NCBI GenBank assembly: GCA_051884775.1 | Contig: JBJEVY010000075.1 | Coordinates: 1-62,333, forward strand | Length of the DNA stretch: 62,333 nucleotides | Source of the DNA: Candidatus Spyradenecus sp. | Lineage (GTDB): Bacteria > Verrucomicrobiota > Kiritimatiellia > RFP12 > DVOR01 | Direction: 5' to 3' | In this document: piece after piece, positions 6,516 to 59,535 of the stretch | How the letters are laid out: every line of letters starts with the position of its first letter | How positions within the stretch are numbered: position 1 is the first letter of the stretch | Notes under the pieces: generated by a model | What the model was told of the DNA's origin: nothing | The model's input: the letters and a program-made list of their open reading frames with translations, nothing else | Database searches by the model: none | Program-made: the position numbers and the translations under genes

Positions 6516-6567
6516 CCCCTTAGAAGCGAACGGCACCGCAGTCGCGGTGCCTTTCGCTTCTAAGGGG
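6516..6567 (+). terminator. Long stem-loop downstream of pflB
   Basis: Outer stem ccccttagaagcgaa (6516-6530) pairs with ttcgcttctaagggg (6553-6567). Inner stem is ggcaccgc/gcggtgcc. There is no clear U-tract. Confidence 0.55.
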
Positions 6568-6589
6568 GATGACGGATGACAGATGAAAG
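6568..6589 (+). repeat. Heptad array (GATGACG GATGACA GATGAAA)
   Basis: Three consecutive 7-nt units directly after the pflB hairpin. Confidence 0.6.
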
Positions 6590-6640
6590 GGTGCGGACAG
6601 CGCTCTCAGTTTATCCATCGCGGCACGCGTGCTGTCATCT

Positions 6641-6692
6641 GCGCTACAACAAAGCGGGGCAGCCGACTGGCTGCCCCGCTTTGTTGTAGCGC
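6641..6692. terminator. 24-bp perfect-stem hairpin between convergent pflB and rplI
   Basis: gcgctacaacaaagcggggcagcc-gact-ggctgccccgctttgttgtagcgc. Confidence 0.65.
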
Positions 6693-6701
6693 GCGTACGC
6701 C

Positions 6702-7160
6702 TTATTCCGCCTCGACCTTGAGGTTGAGCTGGCAGGAGACTTCGCTCATCAGGGCGATGGTCACCTCCAGGGTGCCCAGCTTCTTGATGGGCTCGGGGAG
6801 GAGCACCATCGCCGGGTCGACGGCCACGCCGGCGTCGGTGAGCGCCTTGGCGATATCCGCGGCGGTCACAGAACCGTAGAGCTTGCCCTCTTCGTCGCCC
6901 TCGACGGCCTTGACGACGAGCGTCAGGGTCTGACCCTTGAGCTTGGAAGCCTTGTCGAGCGCCTCGGCCTTGCGGATCTTGAGGAGCTCTTCGCGCTCCT
7001 TGCGGATCTTCTCGAGCTTGCGCAGGGCATTCTTGGTGACGGGCTCAGCGAGGCCCTGGGGCAGGAGGTAGTTGCGGGCGTAGCCATCACGCACGTGCAC
7101 AGTGTCGCCAATCTTGCCGAGGTGGGCGACATCATCCATCAGAATCACTTGAACGGACAT
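6702..7160 (-). CDS. rplI: 50S ribosomal protein L9
   Basis: MSVQVILMDDVAHLGKIGDTVHVRDGYARNYLLPQGLA is a typical L9 N-terminus. Confidence 0.95.
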   Translation of the reverse strand: MSVQVILMDDVAHLGKIGDTVHVRDGYARNYLLPQGLAEPVTKNALRKLEKIRKEREELLKIRKAEALDKASKLKGQTLTLVVKAVEGDEEGKLYGSVTAADIAKALTDAGVAVDPAMVLLPEPIKKLGTLEVTIALMSEVSCQLNLKVEAE

Positions 7161-7448: not shown

Positions 7449-7934
7449 TTAGAAGGGGAGATCTTCGGGGTCTTGGCTCTCAGGAGCGGGCGCGGCGGCC
7501 GGGGCCGGCGCAGGGGCCGAAGCGGTGGGTGCCGCGGGAGCGGGGGCCCACTCGCTGCTGACCGTTGCTCCGCTCGTCTCGCGCCGATTGGCGTTGGGCG
7601 AGTAGAGGAACTGGACGCGGTCGGCGCGCACACGCAGTCGGCTACGCTTCTGGCCAGTGGTCTTGTCTTCCCAGGAGTCGGTCACCAGACGGCCTTCCAC
7701 GAAGACCGGGCGGCCCTTGGTCAGGTACTGACCGCAGTTTTCCGCCACACGGCCCCAGACCGTGACATCGACGTAGGTGACGACCTCGCGGACTTCGTTG
7801 GTGGCGCGCGAGCGGAACTGCTCGCTCACCGCCAGGCTCATATCCGCGACGGTCTCGCCCGAGGGGGTCTGCTTCACGTCGGGATCCCGCGTGAGGTTCC
7901 CCATCAGGAAGACTTTATTGAGGGTTGCGGCCAT
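7449..7934 (-). CDS. ssb: Single-stranded DNA-binding protein
   Basis: OB-fold N-terminus NKVFLMGNLTRDPDV, Pro/Ala-rich linker and acidic tip EDLPF. Confidence 0.95.
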   Translation of the reverse strand: MAATLNKVFLMGNLTRDPDVKQTPSGETVADMSLAVSEQFRSRATNEVREVVTYVDVTVWGRVAENCGQYLTKGRPVFVEGRLVTDSWEDKTTGQKRSRLRVRADRVQFLYSPNANRRETSGATVSSEWAPAPAAPTASAPAPAPAAAPAPESQDPEDLPF

Positions 7935-17730: not shown

Positions 17731-18125
17731 TAGACGAGAGGCGATAGACGAGGAGGCTGTCGCCGGAGGTGGAGCGTCCGTCCGATGGACCGCCAGTTCC
17801 TCCGTCGCGGAACGCGCACTGTCGACTGTCGACTGTTGACTGTCGACTGGGCGCGCAGCGCCCCGCCCCGGGTTGACCTCGCATCCGCCCCGGGTTCGAG
17901 GTCGATCCGCCCCGGGTGAAGTTTTCGATAGGCAAGAGGCGGTAGGCGAGGAGGCTGTCGCCGGAGGTGGAGCATCCGTCCGATGGACCGCCAGTTCCTC
18001 CGTCGCGGAACGCGCACTGTCGACTGTCGACTGTTGACTGTCGACTGGGCGCGCATCGCCCCGCCCCGGGTTGACCTCGCATCCGCCCCGGGTTGGGGTC
18101 GGACTCGGGGCGGGTGCGTTTTCGG
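17711..18125. repeat. 198-bp tandem duplication (about 2.1 copies) upstream of, or in the 5' end of, the GT-C gene
   Basis: Unit 1 is 17711-17908 and unit 2 is 17909-18106, with a partial third. Each unit carries a GTCGACT heptad array (17819-17849, 18017-18047), a CCGTCGCGGAACGCGC core and three 22-bp-phased CCGCCCCGGGTT motifs. Confidence 0.9.
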
Positions 18126-18174: not shown

Positions 18175-20112
18175 TCAGAGCGAGTGGGTGAATTGGCGCC
18201 AACGGAAGGCGGTCACGCGGCAGAGGTGGCCGGGGATCTCGGGAATCGTCCGGGCGATGACGCCGAGGACATTGCGCACGGAGAAGGGCTTGTGGGGTTG
18301 GCCGGCGTAGTCGTGCATCCCGGGCAGACGGATGAGGGTGGGATCCTGCGGCCAATACCAGAAGTTCTCGCCCAAGTAGAAGCACGGGGTGCCGGCGGCA
18401 CGCAAGTCGCGCATCTGCGCGGGGGTCTGCCAGGCCGGGGTGCGAATGCCGCACTCTGGGAGCATCGCGCGGTAGTAGAAGTCGAAGACATGCGGGGCGG
18501 GAATGCCGCGCGGAAGCGTCTCCCAGGCGGCCAGACAGCGACCATCCTCGCGGTAGCGATCGTGGAGGGAGAGGGTGTAGACGCGCGGGGCCGCCTCGCT
18601 CCGCATCGACTGAACCATCGAGAGGGCGTAGACGCTCAACCCCAGCGACATAAAGAGCTTGCCCGCGGCAAAGAGGTAGGAACTCGAGGCCATAATCGAC
18701 ATCCCCACCGTCCCCAAGAGCCGCCCGCACCAAGGACTGCGCGGCACATTGGCGGTGATGGCATTGAAGCAGACCAGGAGCGGGAACATCCACAGCTGCG
18801 GCACATAGCGCACATAGCCCATCGTCTTGGTGGGCTGGAGGAAGGAGGTAAGCAAAATGGCCGCCAACAGCCACGGCACCGCGCAGCGCCGCGTGAAGCA
18901 GAGCGTCAGGAGCGTCAGGCACATCACAATGCGGAAGCCCGGACCCAGACCGCCCACTTGGTCGAGGTGGAAGATCGGCCGGAAGGGCTTGCGCCCCAGC
19001 TTCCATTCGTAGTAGCGATGGGCGAGGTACTTGGAGAGATAGGCATTCACCAGGCGCCCGCAGTAACCCATCTCGGCCGCGTCATCATTCTGCAGGTCAA
19101 AGTCCGCCGTCATCGCCGGCAGCGGCTCGGTCTTGGAGAAGGTGTGCTCGGGGTAGAGCGGACCGCCGTGGTTGGCCCAATTGGTTAGGTAGGGCGAAAA
19201 GCCCACCGTCAGCGCCAGGACAAAGCCGGCGGCATTGGCAATCACCCACTTCCAGAAGGCGTGGCCGCGCGCCTCGCGTACCGCTCGCCACAGCACCGGC
19301 ACCGTAAAGAGCCCCGCCGAGAGCACCAGCGAAATCATCCCCGTGAACTTCAGGTTGCACCCCAGCACCGGCGCCAACGTCACATAGGTGAGCCACGCCG
19401 TGCGCCCCGTCTTGCGATAGGCACAGGCCGCCAGGAGGAAGATCAGCAGCAGCGCATACTGCGTGCCATCCTGCGCGCCGCAGAAGGCACTCGCCACCAC
19501 CCCCGGCGACAGAAGCGTCAGCGAGGCAAAGAAGAGCCGCTTCCACCGCCCCGGCCCAAAGAGCAACGGCGTCACCCGCCACGAAAGCGCCCCCAGCACC
19601 ACCGCCGCCAACAAAATCAAGGTGTCGCCCGATTCCGAATTGCCCGTCAGCGCCGCCGTGGCCGCACTCCAAGTCCACCCCGCCCGCGGCAGATAGGCCA
19701 CATGATAGGCATTGAAGGTGACCGCATCCGCCCCCGTGGCCGCGAGCATCGCCTCGCGCGTGGCGGCAAAAACCGGATTCCAGCCGCCCAAGAGCAGCCG
19801 CGCCGCCGGCAGATGGTAGGCCTGCGCATCCCACCACGAGAAGAAAAGGAAGATGGCATCCACCGCAAAAATGGCCGCCACCGCTCCGGCAAACCACCCC
19901 GCGCGCTTCAACCCCTCGCGCCAGGTGCCCCCGCCGGCAATCGCCAGCGCCCCGGCCAGCACAAACCCCGCCACCGCCCAACGCCCAGAAGCCGGCAGCC
20001 CCAGCAGATACCCCACCGAAGCGAGCAGCACCGTCAGCGTGGGAAAGGCCAGCAACACCGCCGGCAACGGAAAGAGCCCCCGCGCCCGGAAGCCCGAAAG
20101 AAAGCCCGCCAT
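18175..20112 (-). CDS. Large polytopic membrane protein, function unknown (GT-C or polymerase-like topology)
   Basis: 645 aa from MAGFLSGF, with at least 12 hydrophobic segments and a soluble C-terminal domain of about 180 aa. The ORF is open to 20226 through a heptad region. Confidence 0.6.
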   Translation of the reverse strand: MAGFLSGFRARGLFPLPAVLLAFPTLTVLLASVGYLLGLPASGRWAVAGFVLAGALAIAGGGTWREGLKRAGWFAGAVAAIFAVDAIFLFFSWWDAQAYHLPAARLLLGGWNPVFAATREAMLAATGADAVTFNAYHVAYLPRAGWTWSAATAALTGNSESGDTLILLAAVVLGALSWRVTPLLFGPGRWKRLFFASLTLLSPGVVASAFCGAQDGTQYALLLIFLLAACAYRKTGRTAWLTYVTLAPVLGCNLKFTGMISLVLSAGLFTVPVLWRAVREARGHAFWKWVIANAAGFVLALTVGFSPYLTNWANHGGPLYPEHTFSKTEPLPAMTADFDLQNDDAAEMGYCGRLVNAYLSKYLAHRYYEWKLGRKPFRPIFHLDQVGGLGPGFRIVMCLTLLTLCFTRRCAVPWLLAAILLTSFLQPTKTMGYVRYVPQLWMFPLLVCFNAITANVPRSPWCGRLLGTVGMSIMASSSYLFAAGKLFMSLGLSVYALSMVQSMRSEAAPRVYTLSLHDRYREDGRCLAAWETLPRGIPAPHVFDFYYRAMLPECGIRTPAWQTPAQMRDLRAAGTPCFYLGENFWYWPQDPTLIRLPGMHDYAGQPHKPFSVRNVLGVIARTIPEIPGHLCRVTAFRWRQFTHSL

Positions 20113-20118
20113 GCTCGC

Positions 20119-20207
20119 GATGACGGAAGACGAATGACAGAGAACAGAGGCCTCGGCCGATCCGTCTCGGAACGTGTCCTGTCCTCTGTCCTCTGTCATC
20201 GGTCGTC
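20119..20207. repeat. Inverted pair of GATGACA/GAGGACA heptad arrays immediately upstream of the membrane-protein ATG
   Basis: Left arm 20119-20150 is gatgacggaagacgaatgacagagaacagagg. Right arm 20174-20207 is gtgtcctgtcctctgtcctctgtcatcggtcgtc. An 18-bp stem has 2 mismatches; the core is ccgtctcggaacgtg. Confidence 0.8.
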
Positions 20208-20230
20208 TGCGCGCGTCAGCGCGCATACTG

Positions 20231-30288: not shown

Positions 30289-31379
30289 CTTTCTTCGGCG
30301 ATGGTGGCGCCGCCGAGGAGGTAGGCTCCGCGATAGAAGACGCAGGCTTGGCCTGGGGTGAGGAGGGCTTGGGGGGAGGCGGGGTGGACGGTGAGGTCCT
30401 CGGTGAGGGTGCAGTCGAAGGGGGGGTGGTGGTAGCGGGTGACGGCTTGGCAGGTGAGGGGGAAGGTGGGGGGGATGAGCCAGTGGGGGTCGCGGACGGC
30501 GAAGGCGGGGCGGAGGAGGGCTTCGCGGGGGCCGAGGGTGAGGGTGTTGGCGGCGCGGTCGAGGGCGACGACGAAGGCGCGCGAGCCGGTGGCGATGCCC
30601 AGGCCTTTGCGTTGGCCGCGGGTGTAGTTGGCCAGGCCGGTGTGGGTGCCGAGGCGGCGGCCGGCGGTATCGAGGATGGGGCCGGGGGTGGCGGTTTCTG
30701 GGTGGCGGCGGCGGAGTTCGGGGCGGTAGTCGCCACTGGGGAGGAAGCAGATGTCTTGGCTGCCGGCGGCGAGTTTGGCCTCGGGGATGGGGAGGCGCCA
30801 TTCGCGGGCGAGGGCGACGACTTGGGCGCGGGTCATGCCGGCGAGGGGGAAGTGGAGGTGGGGGAGGAGCTCGGGGGGGAGGGCGTAGAGGAAGTAGGAT
30901 TGGTCCTTGGCGGCATCGGTGGCGCAGCGGAGGGTGAGGCGGCCAGAGAGGGGCTCGCGGTCGAGGGCGACGTAGTGACCGGTGGCCATGGGGCCGCCGA
31001 TGGCGCGCTGGAGGAGGCCGAACTTGAGGCGGGGGTTGCACCAGGCGCAGGGATTGGGGGTCTGACCGGCGGCGTAGGCGGCAAAGAAGGGGGCGACCAC
31101 CTCGCGCTCGAAGGCGTCGCGCAGGTCGAGGAGGTGGAGGGGCACGCCCAGGGCAGCGGCGAGCTCGACCACGCCGGGGGCCGGTTCGGCCGAGCAGGTG
31201 AGCATGTGCCAGGCTTCCACCGCGTAGCCTTGGCGCTGGAGCAGCCGGACGCAGACGGCGGAATCGACCCCGCCGGAAAAAGCGACACCAATGGAAGGGA
31301 GCTCGCTACGCTCGCAGTGAACAGTCGACAGTCGACAGTCGACAGGGCTCGCTTCGCTCGCGCAGGGGAGGTCAGCCAT
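30282..31379 (-). CDS. mnmA: tRNA-specific 2-thiouridylase MnmA
   Basis: PP-loop GVAFSGGVDSAV plus NPCAWCN and DQSYFL motifs. GGAG SD lies 6 nt before the ATG at 31379. The first roughly 25 codons are encoded by repeat modules. Confidence 0.9.
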   Translation of the reverse strand: MADLPCASEASPVDCRLSTVHCERSELPSIGVAFSGGVDSAVCVRLLQRQGYAVEAWHMLTCSAEPAPGVVELAAALGVPLHLLDLRDAFEREVVAPFFAAYAAGQTPNPCAWCNPRLKFGLLQRAIGGPMATGHYVALDREPLSGRLTLRCATDAAKDQSYFLYALPPELLPHLHFPLAGMTRAQVVALAREWRLPIPEAKLAAGSQDICFLPSGDYRPELRRRHPETATPGPILDTAGRRLGTHTGLANYTRGQRKGLGIATGSRAFVVALDRAANTLTLGPREALLRPAFAVRDPHWLIPPTFPLTCQAVTRYHHPPFDCTLTEDLTVHPASPQALLTPGQACVFYRGAYLLGGATIAEESR

Positions 31380-31434
31380 CGGTCACTCCGTCGCGGCACG
31401 CGCCTGTCGACTGTTCACTGTCAACTGACGACTC
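31317..31434. repeat. Inverted pair of GTCGACA/GTGAACA heptad arrays bracketing the mnmA start codon
   Basis: Left arm is 31317-31345 and right arm is 31404-31434. The core contains ccgtcgcggcacgcgc (31388-31403), the SD and the ATG. GCTCGCTACGCTCGC lies at 31302-31316. Confidence 0.85.
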
Positions 31435-32401
31435 ATTCTAACGGCAGCTCCAATTGGCCGGAGATCATCATCTTGTGGGCGCCGGTGCCGTCGGAGGTGT
31501 CGTAGACACAGAACTTGACGGTGGGAAAGCGGCGGACGAGGTCCTGCTCGATGTATTGGCGGACGGCTTGGATGTTGTGGGGGTCGTCATCAGAGAAGCC
31601 GATGGAGATGGGCAGGCGCAGGGCGGACATGCCGGTGCGCTCGAGGATGCGCTCGATGTGGTCCATAAAGTCCTGAATGGCAAAGCGCTTGCGCAGTTCG
31701 GGCTTGAGGGGGGCTTCGCTGCCGAGGCGCTCGCTAAAGGACTTGGAGGTGATGGCGTGGTAGCGATTGAGGGCGAGGTAGTTGCGGATGACGCCGGTCT
31801 GCGAGGGGAAGGTCTGAATGTGGTCGAAGCAGTAGGCGTAGCCGCGGAGGTTGATGAGCATCACTTCGCGCTCGACGGGGGTGAGGACGCGCTCGATGAA
31901 GCGCTCAACGCCGCGGCGGAGGGTCTCGGGCTCGTGGCCGCGGGCGGTGACGATGGCGAAGAGGCGGCCTTCAACGAGGGTCTTGCGAAAGGTCTCGAAG
32001 CTTGGCGGGGCGTTGCGGCGCGCGGCGAGGATGTCATCGAGCGCGTGCTCGAGATCCTCCATAAAGGTGCCGCCGCCGAGGGGGGTGCGCTCATCTTGGA
32101 ACTCAACGAAGGCGAGTTCGCGGCGGCCCTGGGGGTAGCGATAGTGCGCAGTGTCCTTGCGGATGATGCTATAGGCGGCGGTGGAGCAGATGTGCGGGAC
32201 CCACCGGCCATCGGGCTCCAAGCGCTCCATGTGGATACGCGTGGGCATGGAGAGGATGTTGTCGTCCCAGTCGAAGATGTAGTACTTGAGGTCTCGGCCG
32301 CGAACGGACTCATTGACCCAGACGCCGTCGACGAAGGCGAGCTTGGCGAGCTCGAACTGCGCCAGGGCGGCGTGGAGGGTCTCGCTTTCGGCAGGGCTCA
32401 A
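31433..32401 (-). CDS. HAD-superfamily-like hydrolase, specific function unknown
   Basis: YYIFDWDDNIL (motif I-like), FAIVTARGH (motif II) and GFSDDDPHN (motif IV). The TTG start overlaps the speB stop (TTGA); the start is uncertain. Confidence 0.55.
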   Translation of the reverse strand: MSPAESETLHAALAQFELAKLAFVDGVWVNESVRGRDLKYYIFDWDDNILSMPTRIHMERLEPDGRWVPHICSTAAYSIIRKDTAHYRYPQGRRELAFVEFQDERTPLGGGTFMEDLEHALDDILAARRNAPPSFETFRKTLVEGRLFAIVTARGHEPETLRRGVERFIERVLTPVEREVMLINLRGYAYCFDHIQTFPSQTGVIRNYLALNRYHAITSKSFSERLGSEAPLKPELRKRFAIQDFMDHIERILERTGMSALRLPISIGFSDDDPHNIQAVRQYIEQDLVRRFPTVKFCVYDTSDGTGAHKMMISGQLELPLE

Positions 32402-35416: not shown

Positions 35417-35535
35417 GTTAGCGGTTAGCTGTTAGCTGTTAGCGGTTAGCTGTTAGCGGATAGCTGTTAGCGGATAGCTGTTAGCAGATAGCAGATAGCC
35501 GTTAGCGGATAGCTGTTGGCGGATAGCAGTTAGCG
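35417..35535 (+). repeat. 17 uninterrupted heptads (GTTAGCG/GTTAGCT/GATAGCT) filling the whole intergenic spacer
   Basis: gttagcg gttagct gttagct gttagcg gttagct gttagcg gatagct gttagcg gatagct gttagca gatagca gatagcc gttagcg gatagct gttggcg gatagca gttagcg, with no indel over 119 nt. Confidence 0.95.
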
Positions 35536-36802: not shown

Positions 36803-37105
36803 AAGGGGCGCTGCGCGCCCCGTGAACGGTGAACGGTGAACGGTGAACGGTGAACGGTGAGAGGTGAGAGGTGAACGGTGAGGTGCTCGCTACGCTCGCG
36901 TGAGGTGCCGTTGCGCGGCGTGAGGGTGGCGGCTATGCCGCCGTGAGGGGCGGCCTGGCGGGCCGTTGGGTGCGCCCCAGCGCCCCCGGATTTCCCGGAT
37001 TTTCCGGACTTTCCGGACTTTCCGGGTCCCTGCGTGCCTTCCCCACCCTGCGCAACCTTTACCCTTTTTGACATAGCTCCTTCGCTTCGCTCGGACTTGT
37101 GCTTC
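36803..37105 (+). repeat. Composite intergenic cassette, copy 2
   Basis: Nine heptads at 36822-36885 (GTGAACG x5, GTGAGAG x2 ...). 36877-36961 is near-identical to 11687-11771. A 9-nt repeat ccggayttt x5 lies at 36986-37029. 37061-37105 matches 11826-11870. A short family-A remnant spans 37095-37150. Confidence 0.85.
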
Positions 37106-39247: not shown

Positions 39248-39459
39248 GCGGACAGCCGACAGCTGACAGCTGACAGCGCTGGCGCTCGATGTGCTTAACC
39301 CGTCTGAGCCGTTTGAGATTGAGCGGACAGCGGACAGCTGACAGCGCGCACTGCGTGCGACGGGCGGGCTCTTGGTCTGTGAAATGTGGTTTCATCGTTT
39401 CTTCCGTTTGCTTATCCGTCGCGCAAGCGGCTGTCCGCTGTCGGCTGTCCGCTGTCGGC
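39248..39459. repeat. GCGGACA/GCTGACA heptad arrays in direct (39248-39278, 39323-39346) and inverted (39427-39459) orientation around a conserved core
   Basis: The core shares cccgtctgagccg (39299-39311) and flanks with 2075-2156. 39323-39346 pairs with 39427-39459 over 21 bp with 1 mismatch. GCTCGCTACGCTCGC lies at 39232-39246. Confidence 0.85.
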
Positions 39460-41575: not shown

Positions 41576-41629
41576 GCGACAGCGGACAGCCGACAGCAGA
41601 CAGCGGACAGCGGACAGTGGACAGCAGAC
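41576..41629 (+). repeat. Heptad array, 7.5 units of NNGACAG
   Basis: gcgacag cggacag ccgacag cagacag cggacag cggacag tggacag cagac. Confidence 0.9.
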
Positions 41630-43717: not shown

Positions 43718-46700
43718 TTATCGACAGGAGGGCTTGGGGGTGAAGAGGCGGACAAGGCGCGAACCGAGGGCGTGGCGCAGGTGCCAGAGGGCGCGGTACC
43801 AGGCCCAGTTGGCGCGGCGGGGACGCGGCGGAGGGATAATGGAGCTCGCCACCCGGCTCGGCGTGCAGGGGAAGGGACGCAGCCAGCAGACCTCAAGCCC
43901 CAGGGCGCGGAAGAAGTCCCAATCATCGGCCAAGACGCAGACGGCGGCATTCGCGCGCTGGAGGAGACGGGCGGCGGGGCGATTGAGGAGGTAGGCGGCG
44001 GCGCTCCAGGCGCGGGGGGCGGTGGGGCGAAGGGTAAAGTCGGCGGGCTCGGGGGTGCCTTCGGTGAGCGAGCAGCCGTGGAGGAGCCAGAGGGCGGGTC
44101 GGTCGGCCGGGAGGTGGGTGCGAGCGTAAGCGAGGGCGGCATCCAGGCGCGCGCGGTCCAGGCAAATATCGTCTTCCAACATCAGCGCGCAGGTGGCCGA
44201 GCTTTCGAGGAAGCGGGCGTAGGCACGTTGGTGACTGAGGGCGCAGCCGACCTCGGCCGGCAGGAGGCGCCGGGCGTTAGCGAGCCAGAAGCGGAAGCGA
44301 GCGACGCGCGCGCCGGGCGGAATGCCATCGACCGCGCGCAGGCGCTCACAGGGGAAGCCACGCAACTGCGCACGCATCGCGGCCAGACGCCCGGGGGCGC
44401 GGTCGAGATTGATGAAGCAGGCGTAGGGAAGGGTGTGGCGGAGCGGGGCGGCGGCGAGGGGGAAGGGCGGGGCGTACCACGTGCGGCGGGCGCAGTGGAG
44501 AGCGTGGCGAAGCCAGCGCCAACGCTCGAGGGCGTAGGTGAAGGTGCGCAGCGGCCAGGCGTTGCCCGTGCGCAGCAGGTGATGGAGGAAGGGGAGGAAC
44601 TTGCGCTCCAGGACCCCCTCGCGCCAGAGGGGCGAGCGGGTGAGCGCGGCAACCTCGCGCCACAGCTCGGCGATGGCAGCCGGGGACTCGGAGGCGTGGT
44701 CGCGGAGGTATTCAGTGAGCGAGCCCCAACAGAAGTCGGTCATCGCGCGGGCGCCGAGGTCGGTGCGGCCGGTGCGCTCCCAGAGCGCGGTGGCCTCGCG
44801 AAAGGCGCGGCAGAGCTCGGCGGTGCGGCGGGGACGGCGAAGGGCGGAGCCGGGCGTGAGCCGGTAGTCGTAGGCGGCCAGGTTGTCCCAAGCGAGCGCG
44901 CGCAGGTGGGGGATGAGGGCGCTGTAGAAGAGGGCATCCTCCTTATAGGCGTAGCCCGGGGCGAAGCGGAGGGAACCCAAGGTGGCGCGGCGGACTTGGT
45001 AGAGGAAGACCCAGCCCGTCTGCGCGCAGAGCGTCCAGGCGGTGGCCGGCAGCGCCTCGCCCGAGGCACACCCGCTGGCGGGGAAGTTGGGGGGATAGTT
45101 CTCGTGGCGCAGGGAGGTCATCCGCAGGCGGAGGAGATCGGCCTGGGGGTGACGCATGCGCAGGGCCTCGAAGGCGGCGAGGTAGCCGGGGCGGAGGGTG
45201 TCGTCGGCATCCAAGAAGCCAATCCAGGGGGCGGTGGCGCGGTCGAGGGCCCGGTTGCGCGCCCGAGAGACGCCGCCATTGCGCGTATGGAGGATGCGGA
45301 AGCGGCGGTCGGCGCGCGCGGCGGCATCGAGGAGGCAGCCGGTGGCATCGGGCGAACCGTCGTCAACGGCCAGGCAGCGCCAGCGGGGGGAGCTTTGGGC
45401 GCGGAGGGAGGCGAGGAGATCGGGGAGCCAGCGCGCGGCGCGGTAGGCCGGGAGGATGAGGTCGCACGGTTCGGGCTCGGGCGTGGGGGCGGAGAGGCGC
45501 GCGAGCCAGGGGCCGATGCTCTCGGCGAGCGTGGGGGGCGCGGGGGGTGACCAGGGCGCGCGAAGGAATTGGCGCAGGCGCTCGGCGAGGGCGGCAGGGT
45601 CGCGTGGCGGGACGAGCGAGGGGTGGCCGGGGGGGACCCAGTCGTCCGTACCTTGGCCGGCGCAGGCGAGGAAGGGGATGCCGCAGGCGGCGGCCTCGGC
45701 ATAGACGCAGCCATAGCCCTCGAAGACGGAGGGGAGGACGAAGAGGTCGAGGGCACGGAAGAAGTCGGGCAGCGCGCTGTGGTCGCGCTCGGGCTCAAAG
45801 GTGACGTGGCCGCGCAAGGCCGGGGTGCGGCGGATGAAGCGCTCGCAGGCGCGGCGGGTCGGGCCCGTGCCAATGCAGCGCAAACGCCAGCCGGCGGGGA
45901 GATCGGGGGCGGCCAGGCGGAGGGCGCGCAGGAGCGTCAGGTGATCCTTGAGGGGGACGAAGTTGGCCACACAGCCGAGGGTGAAGGGGTGCTCGGCGGC
46001 GGGGGCGGGATGGAAGCGCGCGGGGTCGACCCCGTTGGGCAGCACGGAGGCCGCGCGCAGGGTGAAGGGGCGCAGTCCGCGGAGGCAGCGCATGGCGCGG
46101 CGGTAGTCGCCCCAGAGGGTCCAGCGGCCATCGGGGAGGGCGCGGAAGGCGCGTTCGGCAGCGCGGGAGATGAAGACATGCTCATCGATCTGCGCGTGGC
46201 GCTTGGCGAAGGCGCGGTGGAGGAGGCGCTGGTGGGGGGCAAAGTGGCGCAGGAGGCCTTGGGCGAGGCCCGAATCGTCGAGGCTGTGATGGTGAAGGAG
46301 GGTGCGCAGGCGGGGGTTGAGGGCCTTGAGGGCGAGGGGATACTCGACCATCGGCGAACCGTGGGCGTGGCAGATGGCCACCTCCGCCGGGTCGATGCCC
46401 AGGGCGCTCAGGCGTTGAAGGAAGGCCGCGCAGTTGCGGCGAGCGAACAGGAAGGGGAGAATAAAGCCGCGCAGCGCCCGGCGCGAAAAGCGGTGGACGG
46501 TGAGTTCGCCCTGGAGCGGAGCCGGGAGCGGCAGGGTGTAATCCGCGCCCGGCCCGGGCACGAAGACCGAGACGCGGTAGCCCCCGGCGCGGAGAAGTTC
46601 GCAGACGAAGTCGAAGACAAAGCTGCCGCGCCAGGACTCCGGGGAGGGGAAGTGCTGGGTGACGATGAGATAGCGCGGGGGCTGGGCACAGTCGACAGGG

Positions 46701-46759
46701 CGCATACCGCAATGGTCCAGTGCGCCCGCCGCTGTCATCTCTCCTCTGTCATCTGTCAT
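43718..46759 (-). CDS. Three-domain glycosyltransferase fusion (GT4-like, GT2-like, GT25-like)
   Basis: GT4: LFVLPSVFEGYGCVYAEAAACGIP. GT2: LILPAYRAARWL..CLAVDDGSPD..GFLDADD. GT25-like: YACFINLDRAPGR..GCALSHQRAY..LEDD. The ATG at 46759 has a GAGGAG SD 7 nt upstream; an alternative ATG is at 46705. Confidence 0.75.
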   Translation of the reverse strand: MTDDRGEMTAAGALDHCGMRPVDCAQPPRYLIVTQHFPSPESWRGSFVFDFVCELLRAGGYRVSVFVPGPGADYTLPLPAPLQGELTVHRFSRRALRGFILPFLFARRNCAAFLQRLSALGIDPAEVAICHAHGSPMVEYPLALKALNPRLRTLLHHHSLDDSGLAQGLLRHFAPHQRLLHRAFAKRHAQIDEHVFISRAAERAFRALPDGRWTLWGDYRRAMRCLRGLRPFTLRAASVLPNGVDPARFHPAPAAEHPFTLGCVANFVPLKDHLTLLRALRLAAPDLPAGWRLRCIGTGPTRRACERFIRRTPALRGHVTFEPERDHSALPDFFRALDLFVLPSVFEGYGCVYAEAAACGIPFLACAGQGTDDWVPPGHPSLVPPRDPAALAERLRQFLRAPWSPPAPPTLAESIGPWLARLSAPTPEPEPCDLILPAYRAARWLPDLLASLRAQSSPRWRCLAVDDGSPDATGCLLDAAARADRRFRILHTRNGGVSRARNRALDRATAPWIGFLDADDTLRPGYLAAFEALRMRHPQADLLRLRMTSLRHENYPPNFPASGCASGEALPATAWTLCAQTGWVFLYQVRRATLGSLRFAPGYAYKEDALFYSALIPHLRALAWDNLAAYDYRLTPGSALRRPRRTAELCRAFREATALWERTGRTDLGARAMTDFCWGSLTEYLRDHASESPAAIAELWREVAALTRSPLWREGVLERKFLPFLHHLLRTGNAWPLRTFTYALERWRWLRHALHCARRTWYAPPFPLAAAPLRHTLPYACFINLDRAPGRLAAMRAQLRGFPCERLRAVDGIPPGARVARFRFWLANARRLLPAEVGCALSHQRAYARFLESSATCALMLEDDICLDRARLDAALAYARTHLPADRPALWLLHGCSLTEGTPEPADFTLRPTAPRAWSAAAYLLNRPAARLLQRANAAVCVLADDWDFFRALGLEVCWLRPFPCTPSRVASSIIPPPRPRRANWAWYRALWHLRHALGSRLVRLFTPKPSCR

Positions 46760-46777
46760 CCGTCATCTCCTCTCACC
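46731..46777 (-). repeat. GATGACA/GAGGAGA heptad array spanning the ung stop, the SD and the start codon of the glycosyltransferase fusion
   Basis: Minus strand reads TGA-gaggaga tgacgga tgacaga tgacaga ggagaga tgacagc. The repeat itself contains the GAGGAG and ATG elements. Confidence 0.8.
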
Positions 46778-47426
46778 AGTCGATGGGCTGCTGGCCGTGG
46801 GCGAGGAGGTAGGCATTGGCTTGGGAGAAGTGGCGGCAGCCGAAGAAGCCGTTGTAGGCCGAGAGGGGCGAGGGGTGCGCGGCGGTCAGCACCAGGTGGC
46901 GGGCGGGATCGATGAGCGCGCGCTTGGCCTTGGCCTTCGAGCCCCAGAGGAGGAAGACCACGTGCTCGCGGCGTTCGTTGACGGTGCGGATAATGGCATC
47001 GGTGAAGGCCTCCCACCCCAGGCCGGCGTGCGAGAGCGGGGCGTGGGCGCGCACGGTAAGCACGGCATTGAGCAGGAGGACGCCCTGCCGCGCCCAAGGG
47101 GTCAGGTCGCCCAAGGTGATGTGGGCCGGGCGGCCGAGGTCGGAGGCGATTTCGGTGAGGATATTGCGCAGGGAGGGCGGCGGCTGAGTGGGCGGCTGAA
47201 CCGAGAAGGCTAGTCCGTGGGCGTGGCCGGGCGTGGGATAAGGATCCTGCCCCAGGATGACCACGCGCGTCTGAGCCAGGTGGCAGAGCTGGAGCGCGGC
47301 ATAAATGTGTTCGCGCGCCGGGAGGATTTGCTCGCAATCGTAGGCGGAGCGAACCCGAGCACGGAGGGCGGCGAAGTCGGCGCTCGTGATGAAGGGCTCC
47401 AGGGCATCACGCCAATCGGTGCGCAC
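46773..47426 (-). CDS. ung: Uracil-DNA glycosylase (family 1)
   Basis: VILGQDPYP and AAHPSPLSA motifs. The GTG start lies 5 nt after the upstream stop. Confidence 0.9.
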   Translation of the reverse strand: MRTDWRDALEPFITSADFAALRARVRSAYDCEQILPAREHIYAALQLCHLAQTRVVILGQDPYPTPGHAHGLAFSVQPPTQPPPSLRNILTEIASDLGRPAHITLGDLTPWARQGVLLLNAVLTVRAHAPLSHAGLGWEAFTDAIIRTVNERREHVVFLLWGSKAKAKRALIDPARHLVLTAAHPSPLSAYNGFFGCRHFSQANAYLLAHGQQPIDW

Positions 47427-47431
47427 GGGGG

Positions 47432-47875
47432 CTACTCCTCGTCGTTGAAGCAGTCGGTCGGCTCGGCCATGGTCTTGGGGTCGCGCGGCGCGTAGTAGTC
47501 GCGGAAGGCCTCGGTGAAGTCGTAGACCGCATGGAAGTCGGAGAGGGAGTCGGACTGGGTCTTGCCGAAGATGCCCACGGAGATGAGATTGTAGACGAGG
47601 TTACCGATGTCGTCGGTGGAGCGGATATTCATCTCATCGAGGAGATCTGCGGCGAAGGGACCAAACTCGGCGAGGAGGTAGTCGCGGAAGCCGAGAGCTA
47701 GCTGGCGGCCGGAGACATGCCCCTGCGGGCGCGGCGGCTCGCCGGGGTCAACCGGGGCCGGATGGCGGACGGTGTAATCGATCACCGCCGGCATGAGGTC
47801 GTAGGCACGGGCCGGATAGCGCTTGTCATGCGCCAAAATCCGGGCAACGGCCTTATCAAAGCGCTTATCTCGCAT
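47432..47875 (-). CDS. Conserved hypothetical protein (147 aa, acidic C-terminus)
   Basis: The ATG at 47875 has a GGAGAG SD. No motif was recognised with confidence. It sits between hisF and ung with short gaps. Confidence 0.55.
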   Translation of the reverse strand: MRDKRFDKAVARILAHDKRYPARAYDLMPAVIDYTVRHPAPVDPGEPPRPQGHVSGRQLALGFRDYLLAEFGPFAADLLDEMNIRSTDDIGNLVYNLISVGIFGKTQSDSLSDFHAVYDFTEAFRDYYAPRDPKTMAEPTDCFNDEE

Positions 47876-47885
47876 AACGCCTCTC

Positions 47886-48656
47886 CTAGCGCACGGGGAT
47901 GGCCGCCGCGCGCAGCGCCTGCTTAATGCCCTGGCAGGTGTAGCCCATCGTGTGAACCATTGAAGCAACGAGCGCGGCATCGGCCTTGCCCGCGGTCAGC
48001 ACCTCCACCAGATGCTGCGGTGCGCCGGCCCCGCCCGAAGCGATGACCGGCACCTTCACCGCTTCGCTCACTTGGCGAGTAATCTCCAGCTCGTAGCCTT
48101 CGCGCACGCCATCGGTGTCGATCGCGTTCAGGCAAATCTCACCCGCGCCCAGAGCCACCGCCTCCTTGGCCCAGGCCACAGCATCGCGTCCGGTGGGCTC
48201 GCGACCGCCCCGGATGACCACCTCGTAGCCCGAGGGGATAGCCGCCGAAACGCCCACGCGCTTGGCATCCATCCCCAGCACCACGCACTGGCGACCAAAG
48301 GCGCGCGCGCCCTCGGCCAAGATCTCGGGTTTCTCCACAGCCAGGGAGTTGAGCGAAACCTTGTCTGCGCCGGCCAGAAGCGCTGCGCGCATATCCTCCA
48401 CCCCGCGGATGCCCCCGCCAACGGTGAAGGGAATGGTGAGGGCGCGGGCGGCGCGCTCGACCATCTCCAGGTCGCAGCGGCGGTGTTCGGCGCTGGCGGT
48501 GATGTCGTAGAAGACCATCTCATCGGCGCCCTCATCGCAGTAGCGCGCGGCCATCTCCACGGGGTCGCCCACGTCGATATTGCCCTTAAACTTCACGCCC
48601 TTGGTGACGCGCCCATTGCGCACGTCTAGGCAGACAATCAAGCGTTTCAGGAGCAT
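47886..48656 (-). CDS. hisF: Imidazole glycerol phosphate synthase, cyclase subunit
   Basis: [26 protein letters not shown] and IASGGAG motifs. Confidence 0.95.
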
Positions 48657-58734: not shown

Positions 58735-58809
58735 GAGTGAACCGTGAGAGGTGAACGATGAGAGGTGAACGATGAGAGGTGAACGATGAGAGGTGAACGG
58801 TGAACGGTC
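58735..58809 (+). repeat. Heptad array with 14-nt super-period (AGGTGAACGATGAG x3, then GTGAACG x2)
   Basis: gagtgaaccgtgagaggtgaacgatgagaggtgaacgatgagaggtgaacgatgagaggtgaacggtgaacggtcg. Confidence 0.9.
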
Positions 58810-58843: not shown

Positions 58844-59530
58844 TTAACTCCGCGGCAGCAGGCGCACCAGGGCCGCCCCGCGCTCGGCAATCGGCAGGCG
58901 GATGCGCGCGTCCCAACCTACCGCTTCGTCGCGCTGCTCAGGGAGGCCATCCGCCGCCGAGAGCACATCCATCGTGGCGAAGGGCCGCTCCCCGGGCAAC
59001 GCCTCAATTAGGTCCGCCGCGCGGAAGGTCAGCACCGCCGGCTTCCCGCACGGCAGCACGAAGGCGCCCATCGTGTAGCTGCCATCGACTTCGCGCAGGC
59101 CAAACTGCAAGAACCACCCCGGCTCGCCCCGCCGGCACCAACGCGCCTCCGGCGCGCAACGCAACATCCGCAGCAGCGCGGCAAAGGTTTCGCGATAGAG
59201 TGGCGAGAAGCCGCCCGAGGCGTCCAACATCCACGCCCCCTGCGGACAGAGCGGCATCTCCCGGAAGGCTGCGAAGAGCACCGCCTCGGCGCTCTCCAAC
59301 ACGCGCGGCGAGGCTACGGCCTCGGGGTCCGCCGCCTGGCAGAGCAGCGCGGCCGGCGAAGGGACCTGCCGCTCGACCACGCACCCATCGGCGCGCCAGT
59401 AGCGCAGCGCCGTCCGCCCCTGCGCCGTGAAGTAGAGATTGACGGGCAAGCGCTCGCGGGCATCCAAAACTGCCCCCGTGCCTGCCCGTCGCGGAACGCG
59501 CCCTGTCGACTGTCGGCTGTCGACTGTCAT
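58844..59530 (-). CDS. Hypothetical protein (228 aa)
   Basis: The ORF follows the S1-domain gene stop by 3 nt. The first 10 codons (MTVDSRQSTG) are a heptad array. No motif was recognised and the start is uncertain. Confidence 0.45.
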   Translation of the reverse strand: MTVDSRQSTGRVPRRAGTGAVLDARERLPVNLYFTAQGRTALRYWRADGCVVERQVPSPAALLCQAADPEAVASPRVLESAEAVLFAAFREMPLCPQGAWMLDASGGFSPLYRETFAALLRMLRCAPEARWCRRGEPGWFLQFGLREVDGSYTMGAFVLPCGKPAVLTFRAADLIEALPGERPFATMDVLSAADGLPEQRDEAVGWDARIRLPIAERGAALVRLLPRS

Positions 59531-59531
59531 C
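59503..59531 (-). repeat. GTCGACA heptad array preceded by the CCGTCGCGGAACGCGC core (59486-59502)
   Basis: ctgtcgactgtcggctgtcgactgtcatc. Confidence 0.85.
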
Positions 59532-59535
59532 TTCC

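Follow-up and report, generated by a model that had tools for sequence, protein, structure and literature searches.

The heptad array that separates ung from a glycosyltransferase fusion gene in Candidatus Spyradenecus is, as judged from sequence alignments, the left arm of a dispersed element with heptad arms, which probably inserted between the two genes. Insertion of this element and co-option of its arm as a new SD and start codon for the downstream gene form the best explanation of the locus, to which we give a probability of about 0.68. Positions below refer to the 62,333-nt stretch of DNA that was analysed (the window), which belongs to an assembly of 2.39 Mb in 120 contigs with 63.8% GC (G000); the genes and motifs of the junction all lie on its minus strand.

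The uracil-DNA glycosylase ORF (ung, 46773..47426; Pfam UDG, E=8.3e-20) ends with a TGA at 46775-46773. Directly 3' of this stop stand six 7-nt units (46772-46731), in the order GAGGAGA TGACGGA TGACAGA TGACAGA GGAGAGA TGACAGC, a layout described in an initial annotation of this DNA and borne out both by the sequence and by TRF (period 7, 5.3 copies, 80% matches, score 53). Period-7 self-matches amount to 24 of 35, a value attained in one of 100,000 shuffled versions of the 42-mer and in 321 of the 62,292 segments of 42 nt in the window, many of these being other heptad arrays. Units 3 and 4 are the sole identical neighbours. Further downstream, alignment places a remnant of a right arm made of inverted GACAG-type units (CTGTCGA CTGTGCC, 46685..46698), and the left arm, core remnant and inverted right arm together make up a 97-nt insert (46676..46772) between the ung stop and the conserved body of the glycosyltransferase. 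The glycosyltransferase fusion ORF (43718-46759) encodes 1,013 aa with GT4, GT2 and GT25 domains at residues 53-401, 434-528 and 783-870, respectively (Pfam), and has full-length orthologues at 83-88% identity in three genomes of the genus (G013, G021 and G003).

Four ATGs are found inside the array (46766, 46759, 46752 and 46738). The annotation had counted three; it was right that ATG 46759 is part of a unit, and the glycosyltransferase frame is shared by 46759 and 46738 only. The other two, 46766 and 46752, open ORFs of 5 codons, both ending at TGAs within the array, which has a TGA in all three frames. ATG 46759 (M1, 46757..46759) is the likeliest start of the glycosyltransferase, being in frame, 14 nt past the ung stop and preceded at the optimal distance by an SD-like AGGAG (46767..46771; -12..-8, 7-nt spacer), as the annotation had also noted. 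The second in-frame ATG of the array, 46738 (M8, 46736..46738), has a GGAG just upstream at -6..-3 and is kept as the second ATG in alleles of the G013 type. A third in-frame ATG, 46705 (M19, 46703..46705), lies without an SD in the conserved terminus of the element. A promoter and terminator scan of 46300-48300 gave no promoter-like site, and at the junction of the two genes neither a promoter- nor a terminator-like site, so that co-transcription of ung and the glycosyltransferase gene fits these data; one terminator-like site, at chance level, was located inside the glycosyltransferase ORF.

In public annotation the fusion ORF appears to be handled in another way, with only a short form on record and the full-length forms absent. 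A public protein of 277 aa (P0008), which comes from a contig of 62,333 nt, equals the last 277 residues of the ORF (43718-44551, the GT25 part), except that Met stands for an internal Leu codon, and the 1,013-, 1,006- and 995-aa forms of the glycosyltransferase had no exact match in the public protein collection.

The assignment of the spacer to an element family rests on its other copies in the genome. When the junction was compared with its own assembly by BLAST, ten other sites matched the array only, and the entire 97-nt spacer (46772-46676) aligned lengthwise with 11 other genome copies, as did the 117-nt spacer of G013. The common plan, roughly 100 nt in size, consists of an arm (GATGACAGA GGACGGA GGACAGA TGACAGA AGC) with heptads of the GATGACA/GAGGACR type, a variable stretch of some 13 bases, the conserved terminus CCGTCGCGG-AC-GCGCC and, in inverted orientation, a second arm of CTGTCGA heptads. 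An nhmmer profile was then built from the 11 copies, leaving the junction out, and run over the entire genome. It matched 46762-46688 at E=3.9e-11 and gave 224 genome matches at E<0.01, many of them comprising the terminus and right arm only. Pairs of GACAG arrays within 200 nt of each other were oriented forward to reverse in 41 cases and reverse to forward in none, with a core of 80-89 nt in 31 pairs, and the junction copy bears both the GATGACA arm and the inverted CTGTCGA arm. An SD-like GAGGA and ATGs are present in the consensus arm of the element and are therefore not products of local slippage. By eye, a target-site duplication was not evident at the junction.

A larger cassette with similar arms was observed elsewhere in G000, outside the window. 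A gene of the 23S_rRNA_IVP family (PF05635, 129 bits), at C64:7155-7469 and one of two PF05635 genes, has a GACAGCN array on either side (7072-7097 and 7540-7565), the two in inverted orientation. The core termini of this cassette (CCGCGTTCCGCGACGG ... GAGCGCCAGCG) recur in some 30 miniature elements that are dispersed in the genome and have cores of about 81 nt; one copy lies within the window at 39251-39456, and these miniature elements look like gene-less derivatives of the IVP-gene cassette (C64:7072-7565). Around the second IVP-family gene (C56:23322-23636) stands another inverted repeat, of the GTGAGGT/ACCTCAC type. The single, weak Y1_Tnp match in the genome (PF01797, 29.9 bits) was found at C56:20727-20999, approximately 2.3 kb from this second gene.

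Comparison of orthologous loci, which had been proposed as a check, showed the insert at the same junction in G000 and G013 and its absence from three sister species (G021, G003 and G017), whose glycosyltransferases have protein identities of 83-87%. The insert-free junctions read 'TGG TAG CGCCCCGCGCTATCTC', in which TAG is the ung stop and 7 nt replace the 97 nt. In these three species the glycosyltransferase frame is open back into ung, as far as an ATG that precedes the Tyr30 codon by 54 nt; two of these species also have a TTG, at 21 nt upstream. Of the public proteins with the insert-free form, eight have 1,002 aa and one has 991 aa; two contigs of public run X2 and one of run X6 were likewise array-less. 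The in-ung ATG persists in G000, but its frame is closed by the first TGA of the array (46765-46763). In G013, at 88% identity, the left arm has an equal number of units with a net difference of -1 nt and many substitutions, and the right arm is 21 nt (3 units) longer. The other 18 species in which ung was found have unrelated neighbours and no heptads after this gene, and more distant homologues of the glycosyltransferase are not adjacent to ung. Among the public sequences, two array-less proteins of 1,002 aa (P0009 and P0015) cluster at 90% with array-bearing proteins of the G013 type (the P0002 cluster); their N-terminal third is like that of the array-less cluster and their C-terminus like that of the G013 type, which suggests recombination within the gene between lineages.

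The history that we propose begins with two abutting genes, as in the relatives, where the glycosyltransferase ORF would have started at an ATG within the 3' end of ung. The element would then have inserted exactly at the junction in the common ancestor of the G000 species and G013 and, carrying a TGA in each of the three frames, would have closed the old reading frame within ung. Survival of the gene may be due to the units of the arm themselves, which bring ATGs and a purine-rich GAGGAG that resembles an SD. Translation would now most likely proceed from ATG 46759, 14 nt beyond the ung stop, and the new start would add some 25 repeat-encoded residues in front of the conserved N-terminus AQPPRYLIVTQ. 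That the event was an insertion rather than a precise loss is a direction we infer from a comparison made without an outgroup.

The annotation had held that the array supplies both the SD and the start codon of the glycosyltransferase, and this we consider probable. An SD-like 4-mer (GGAG, GAGG or AGGA) occurred at -20..-4 of 45% of 1,463 starts, against 14% of control positions, and GGAG peaked genome-wide at -12 and -11 (99 and 77 starts), while AGGAG began at -13 to -10 in 65, 51, 51 and 34 of the 1,463; all these are rough starts taken from an ORF model made here. The short conserved motif of the 16S 3' end was unmatched in the assembly, and the use of SD in this genome was accordingly read from start statistics, not from the anti-SD. 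At ATG 46759, GGAG stands at -11 and the AGGAG spacing is the one preferred across the genome; at ATG 46738, GGAG stands at -6, a position used by 14 rough starts.

Allelic comparison points the same way, in that alleles of the G013 and P0003 types have no in-frame ATG, GTG or TTG outside the array. In G013 these codons are limited to the two array ATGs. The P0003 allele type (1,007 aa) begins with MTDDSGQRIAADALDQRDAQLPRY and has a single start, which equals the first array ATG; its N-terminus reads MTDDSGQRIA... and has no further Met from the first residue to the conserved RYLIV. Six of the ten public proteins of the G013 type were called from the second ATG (MTEAG...), as seen in the protein records, and their first ATG may be lacking or out of frame. 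The three array-less sister species, as described above, start the ORF inside ung. Initiation within the array is thus the best reading, given the SD spacing of ATG 46759 and two allele types that lack an alternative start, and it is likely, from sequence, that translation begins at 46759 or 46738, the two taken together.

Another possible explanation is that the array is an untranslated intercistronic spacer, that translation starts at ATG 46705 and that the resemblance of the units to SD and ATG motifs is incidental. Alignments with homologues begin at residues 19-28 of the 1,013-aa ORF, where conservation sets in, so that a protein begun at ATG 46705 would be just as plausible; moreover, alleles show little conservation in the 29 residues that precede RYLIV, and GT4 enzymes usually begin a few residues ahead of the first strand. 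Against these points, no SD-like motif was found upstream of ATG 46705, although 45% of the rough starts have one, and full-length alleles of the G013 and P0003 types have no start at this place. The position reads ACG both in G013 and in the consensus of the element's conserved terminus, and ATG 46705 would therefore be a recent substitution. A search for shorter N-terminal protein fragments of the glycosyltransferase gave none at E<=1e-40. On balance we regard a start at ATG 46705 as unlikely, and initiation within the array as the preferred reading.

A different view of the same units, put forward in the initial annotation, is that of a frameshift-prone contingency locus, in which 7-nt slippage would alter both the SD spacing and the frame of the ATG and thereby switch the glycosyltransferase on and off. 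The period of 7 equals 1 mod 3, and successive units accordingly set ATG and TGA in all three frames; the loss or gain of a unit between the SD and ATG 46759 would put this ATG out of frame. Genes of the GT25 family are phase-variable in Haemophilus and Neisseria. Length differences do exist in the insert, namely the additional 21 nt in the right arm of G013 relative to G000 and, in one contig of run X7 (depth 6.7), 73 letters instead of 59 between 46678 and 46738; such a gain of 14 nt, of which the length alone is known, would break the frame from all three ATGs.

The claim of a combined change in spacing and frame holds for ATG 46759 only: the identical pair of units is followed by both ATG 46738 and ATG 46705, and a one-unit slip in the pair would leave these two in frame. 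The tract itself is a degenerate copy of a genome-wide element rather than a long perfect tract, with 80% matches and only two adjacent units identical, and repeats of its type occur genome-wide in spacers of all three kinds (convergent, divergent and tandem) and are not tied to surface genes. The distance from M1 to M8 is 7 codons (21 nt) in all six alleles that show both positions (that of G000 itself, P0002, P0005, P0010, P0013 and P0003), M8 and Tyr stand equally far apart in ten of ten proteins of the G013 type, and the differences in the left arm between lineages are substitutions. Nor was an indel seen in the tract in contigs from four public runs (X1, X2, X6 and X7), which represent relatives with array-less and G013-like junctions and from which rare variants are dropped; these contigs were compared at a likeness of at least 85%, the best runs contained 0.10-0.15 of the sampled words, and no contig spans the whole stretch. 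A scan of JGI metagenomes with the GT4 domain produced 564 pattern matches, with 0 confirmed. Unit-number switching at an appreciable rate is not supported, as nothing indicates it across the alleles and contigs of relatives, and we consider a phase-variable start highly improbable.

One may also conceive of the GATGACA-type arm as a frame-independent 'stop-and-restart' cassette, whose overlapping ATGA (start/stop) and SD-like GAGGA motifs, set in all three frames by the 7-nt period, would allow it to land between translationally coupled genes without killing the downstream gene. Changes in the number of arm units, such as the 21 nt in G013 and possibly the 14 nt of the contig, would then tune or switch how a surface-glycan enzyme with a GT25 domain is translated in these gut Kiritimatiellia. 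This is a speculative extension, and we think it improbable.

The wider occurrence of such repeats bears on how the junction is to be read. Genome-wide TRF analysis of G000 gave 533 period-7 rows at a score of at least 30 and 329 at a score of at least 40, in three families of heptad units: GACAGNN, GGTGAAC(-like) and GCTAACN. Arrays of at least three consecutive units, searched for by regular expression, numbered 178, 68 and 56, respectively (302 in total), with 0 in the shuffled genome. According to a rough ORF model made here (1,497 ORFs; 83% coding, 17% non-coding), 240 of the 418 merged arrays are intergenic, 42 extend across ORF ends and 136 lie inside ORFs, about 50 of the latter not more than 100 nt from the start of the longest ORF. 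By the same calls, the 178 GACAGNN arrays occur between convergent genes (27), between divergent genes (31) and in tandem spacers in sense (30) or antisense (22) orientation, as well as at the 5' ends of ORFs; as a class they are not start-region devices and, from this spread over convergent, divergent and tandem spacers, are not tied to surface genes. Arrays of the GGTGAAC type were strand-biased in tandem-gene spacers, at 25 antisense and 6 sense, and no such bias was seen for GACAGNN (22 and 30) or GCTAACN (13 and 16), all on the rough ORF calls.

Other arrays or copies of the element were located in the window by TRF and nhmmer at 6547-6669, 17789-18056, 20106-20223, 31295-31444, 35417-35535 (a GTTAGCG array of 17 units), 36822-36881, 41578-41629, 58737-58808 and 59474-59534.

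Among 28 genomes of the genus, GACAG x4 arrays were detected in five, with 163 matches in G000, 121 in G003, 65 in G017, 58 in G013 and 56 in G021, and in none of the 23 others; a reversed-pattern control of this search is uninformative, since the pattern reads identically backwards. The five are exactly those genomes that have the ung-glycosyltransferase junction. The heptad class in Candidatus Spyradenecus is lineage-restricted, with many sets per genome, and mostly intergenic.

These distributions also bear on the proposal that the tract is a binding site or an RNA structure regulating translation of the glycosyltransferase, by analogy with the TAACTGA repeats of Beggiatoaceae. For those repeats, the part of the published account drawn on here proposes that heptamers just upstream of starts serve as sites for post-transcriptional regulators (PMC4679880), and the array region at our junction is predicted to be unpaired, as would suit a site of this kind. 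On the other side, 27 of the 178 GACAGNN arrays lie between convergent genes, and an Rfam scan of the window returned two tRNAs only. RNA structure as an explanation of the junction was rejected, for the junction folds no better than its shuffles (minimum free energy z of -0.81 in G000 and +1.21 in G013). We regard a regulatory role of this kind as extremely improbable, and return to the insertion of a dispersed element with co-option of its arm as the preferred account.

For the annotation of these uncultured gut bacteria, the insert explains the differing start calls of the glycosyltransferase between records, in which the proteins range from 991 to 1,020 aa. The locus offers nothing fundamentally new on translation or phase variation. 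A practical consequence is that any repeat found at a gene start needs to be compared with the entire genome before a role in phase variation is assigned to it. No published accounts of repeats in Spyradenecus were found in a literature search confined to that name.

Among simple-sequence contingency loci are the LOS glycosyltransferase genes of Haemophilus, which carry tetranucleotide tracts in their 5' ends. The junction resembles them in having a short tandem repeat at the 5' end of a glycan-synthesis gene, where a change of units could shift the frame. It differs in that the tract is short, degenerate and part of a genome-wide family, that two in-frame ATGs follow the identical pair of units, and that no unit-number polymorphism was seen among the alleles compared. 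MITE-, REP- or Correia-like elements are small dispersed elements that insert between genes and supply expression signals, and with them the present family shares non-coding copies of about 100 nt, inverted arms, a homologous core, presence or absence at orthologous sites and, as predicted here, co-option for the expression of an adjacent gene. Unlike in those elements, the arms consist of tandem heptads instead of a unique terminal inverted repeat, and the one full-length relative found encloses a gene of the 23S_rRNA_IVP family, not a transposase.

Heptamer repeats have been described in other bacteria. GGGAATC heptamers of Xanthomonas and GGGGA(C/T)T heptamers of Nostoc are positionally stable (Rehm et al. 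2015, PMC4692102). As far as the portion of that paper used here extends, the heptads of Spyradenecus resemble them in forming over-represented, dispersed intergenic arrays near ORF ends, and we count as further shared traits that these heptamers are genomically stable rather than hypervariable and that their downstream genes belong to no particular class. In contrast to these heptamers as that portion presents them, the units here have another sequence and no G-quadruplex potential, and the junction copy is a presence/absence insertion that displaces a start codon. The TAACTGA heptamer repeats, which occur near start codons in marine Beggiatoaceae and in some Cyanobacteria and Bacteroidetes, show indels in 7-nt steps between close strains, according to the sections of the source relied on here (MacGregor 2015, PMC4679880). 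With them the present repeats have in common tandem 7-nt units in many dispersed, lineage-restricted sets that often adjoin start codons. In the present units G and A predominate (GACAGNN and relatives), and both ATGs and SD-like motifs occur in them, whereas TAACTGA has, in those sections, little SD character and most of its downstream ORFs are without an SD (PMC4679880); in addition, the arrays here occupy all intergenic contexts, often as inverted pairs around a conserved core, in contrast to TAACTGA as described in the same sections. The tract at the ung-glycosyltransferase junction is an ordinary member of this known, still unexplained class of heptamer repeats, and it would provide a natural example of a dispersed heptamer element that breaks an overlapping gene junction and is then co-opted as ribosome-binding site and start codon.
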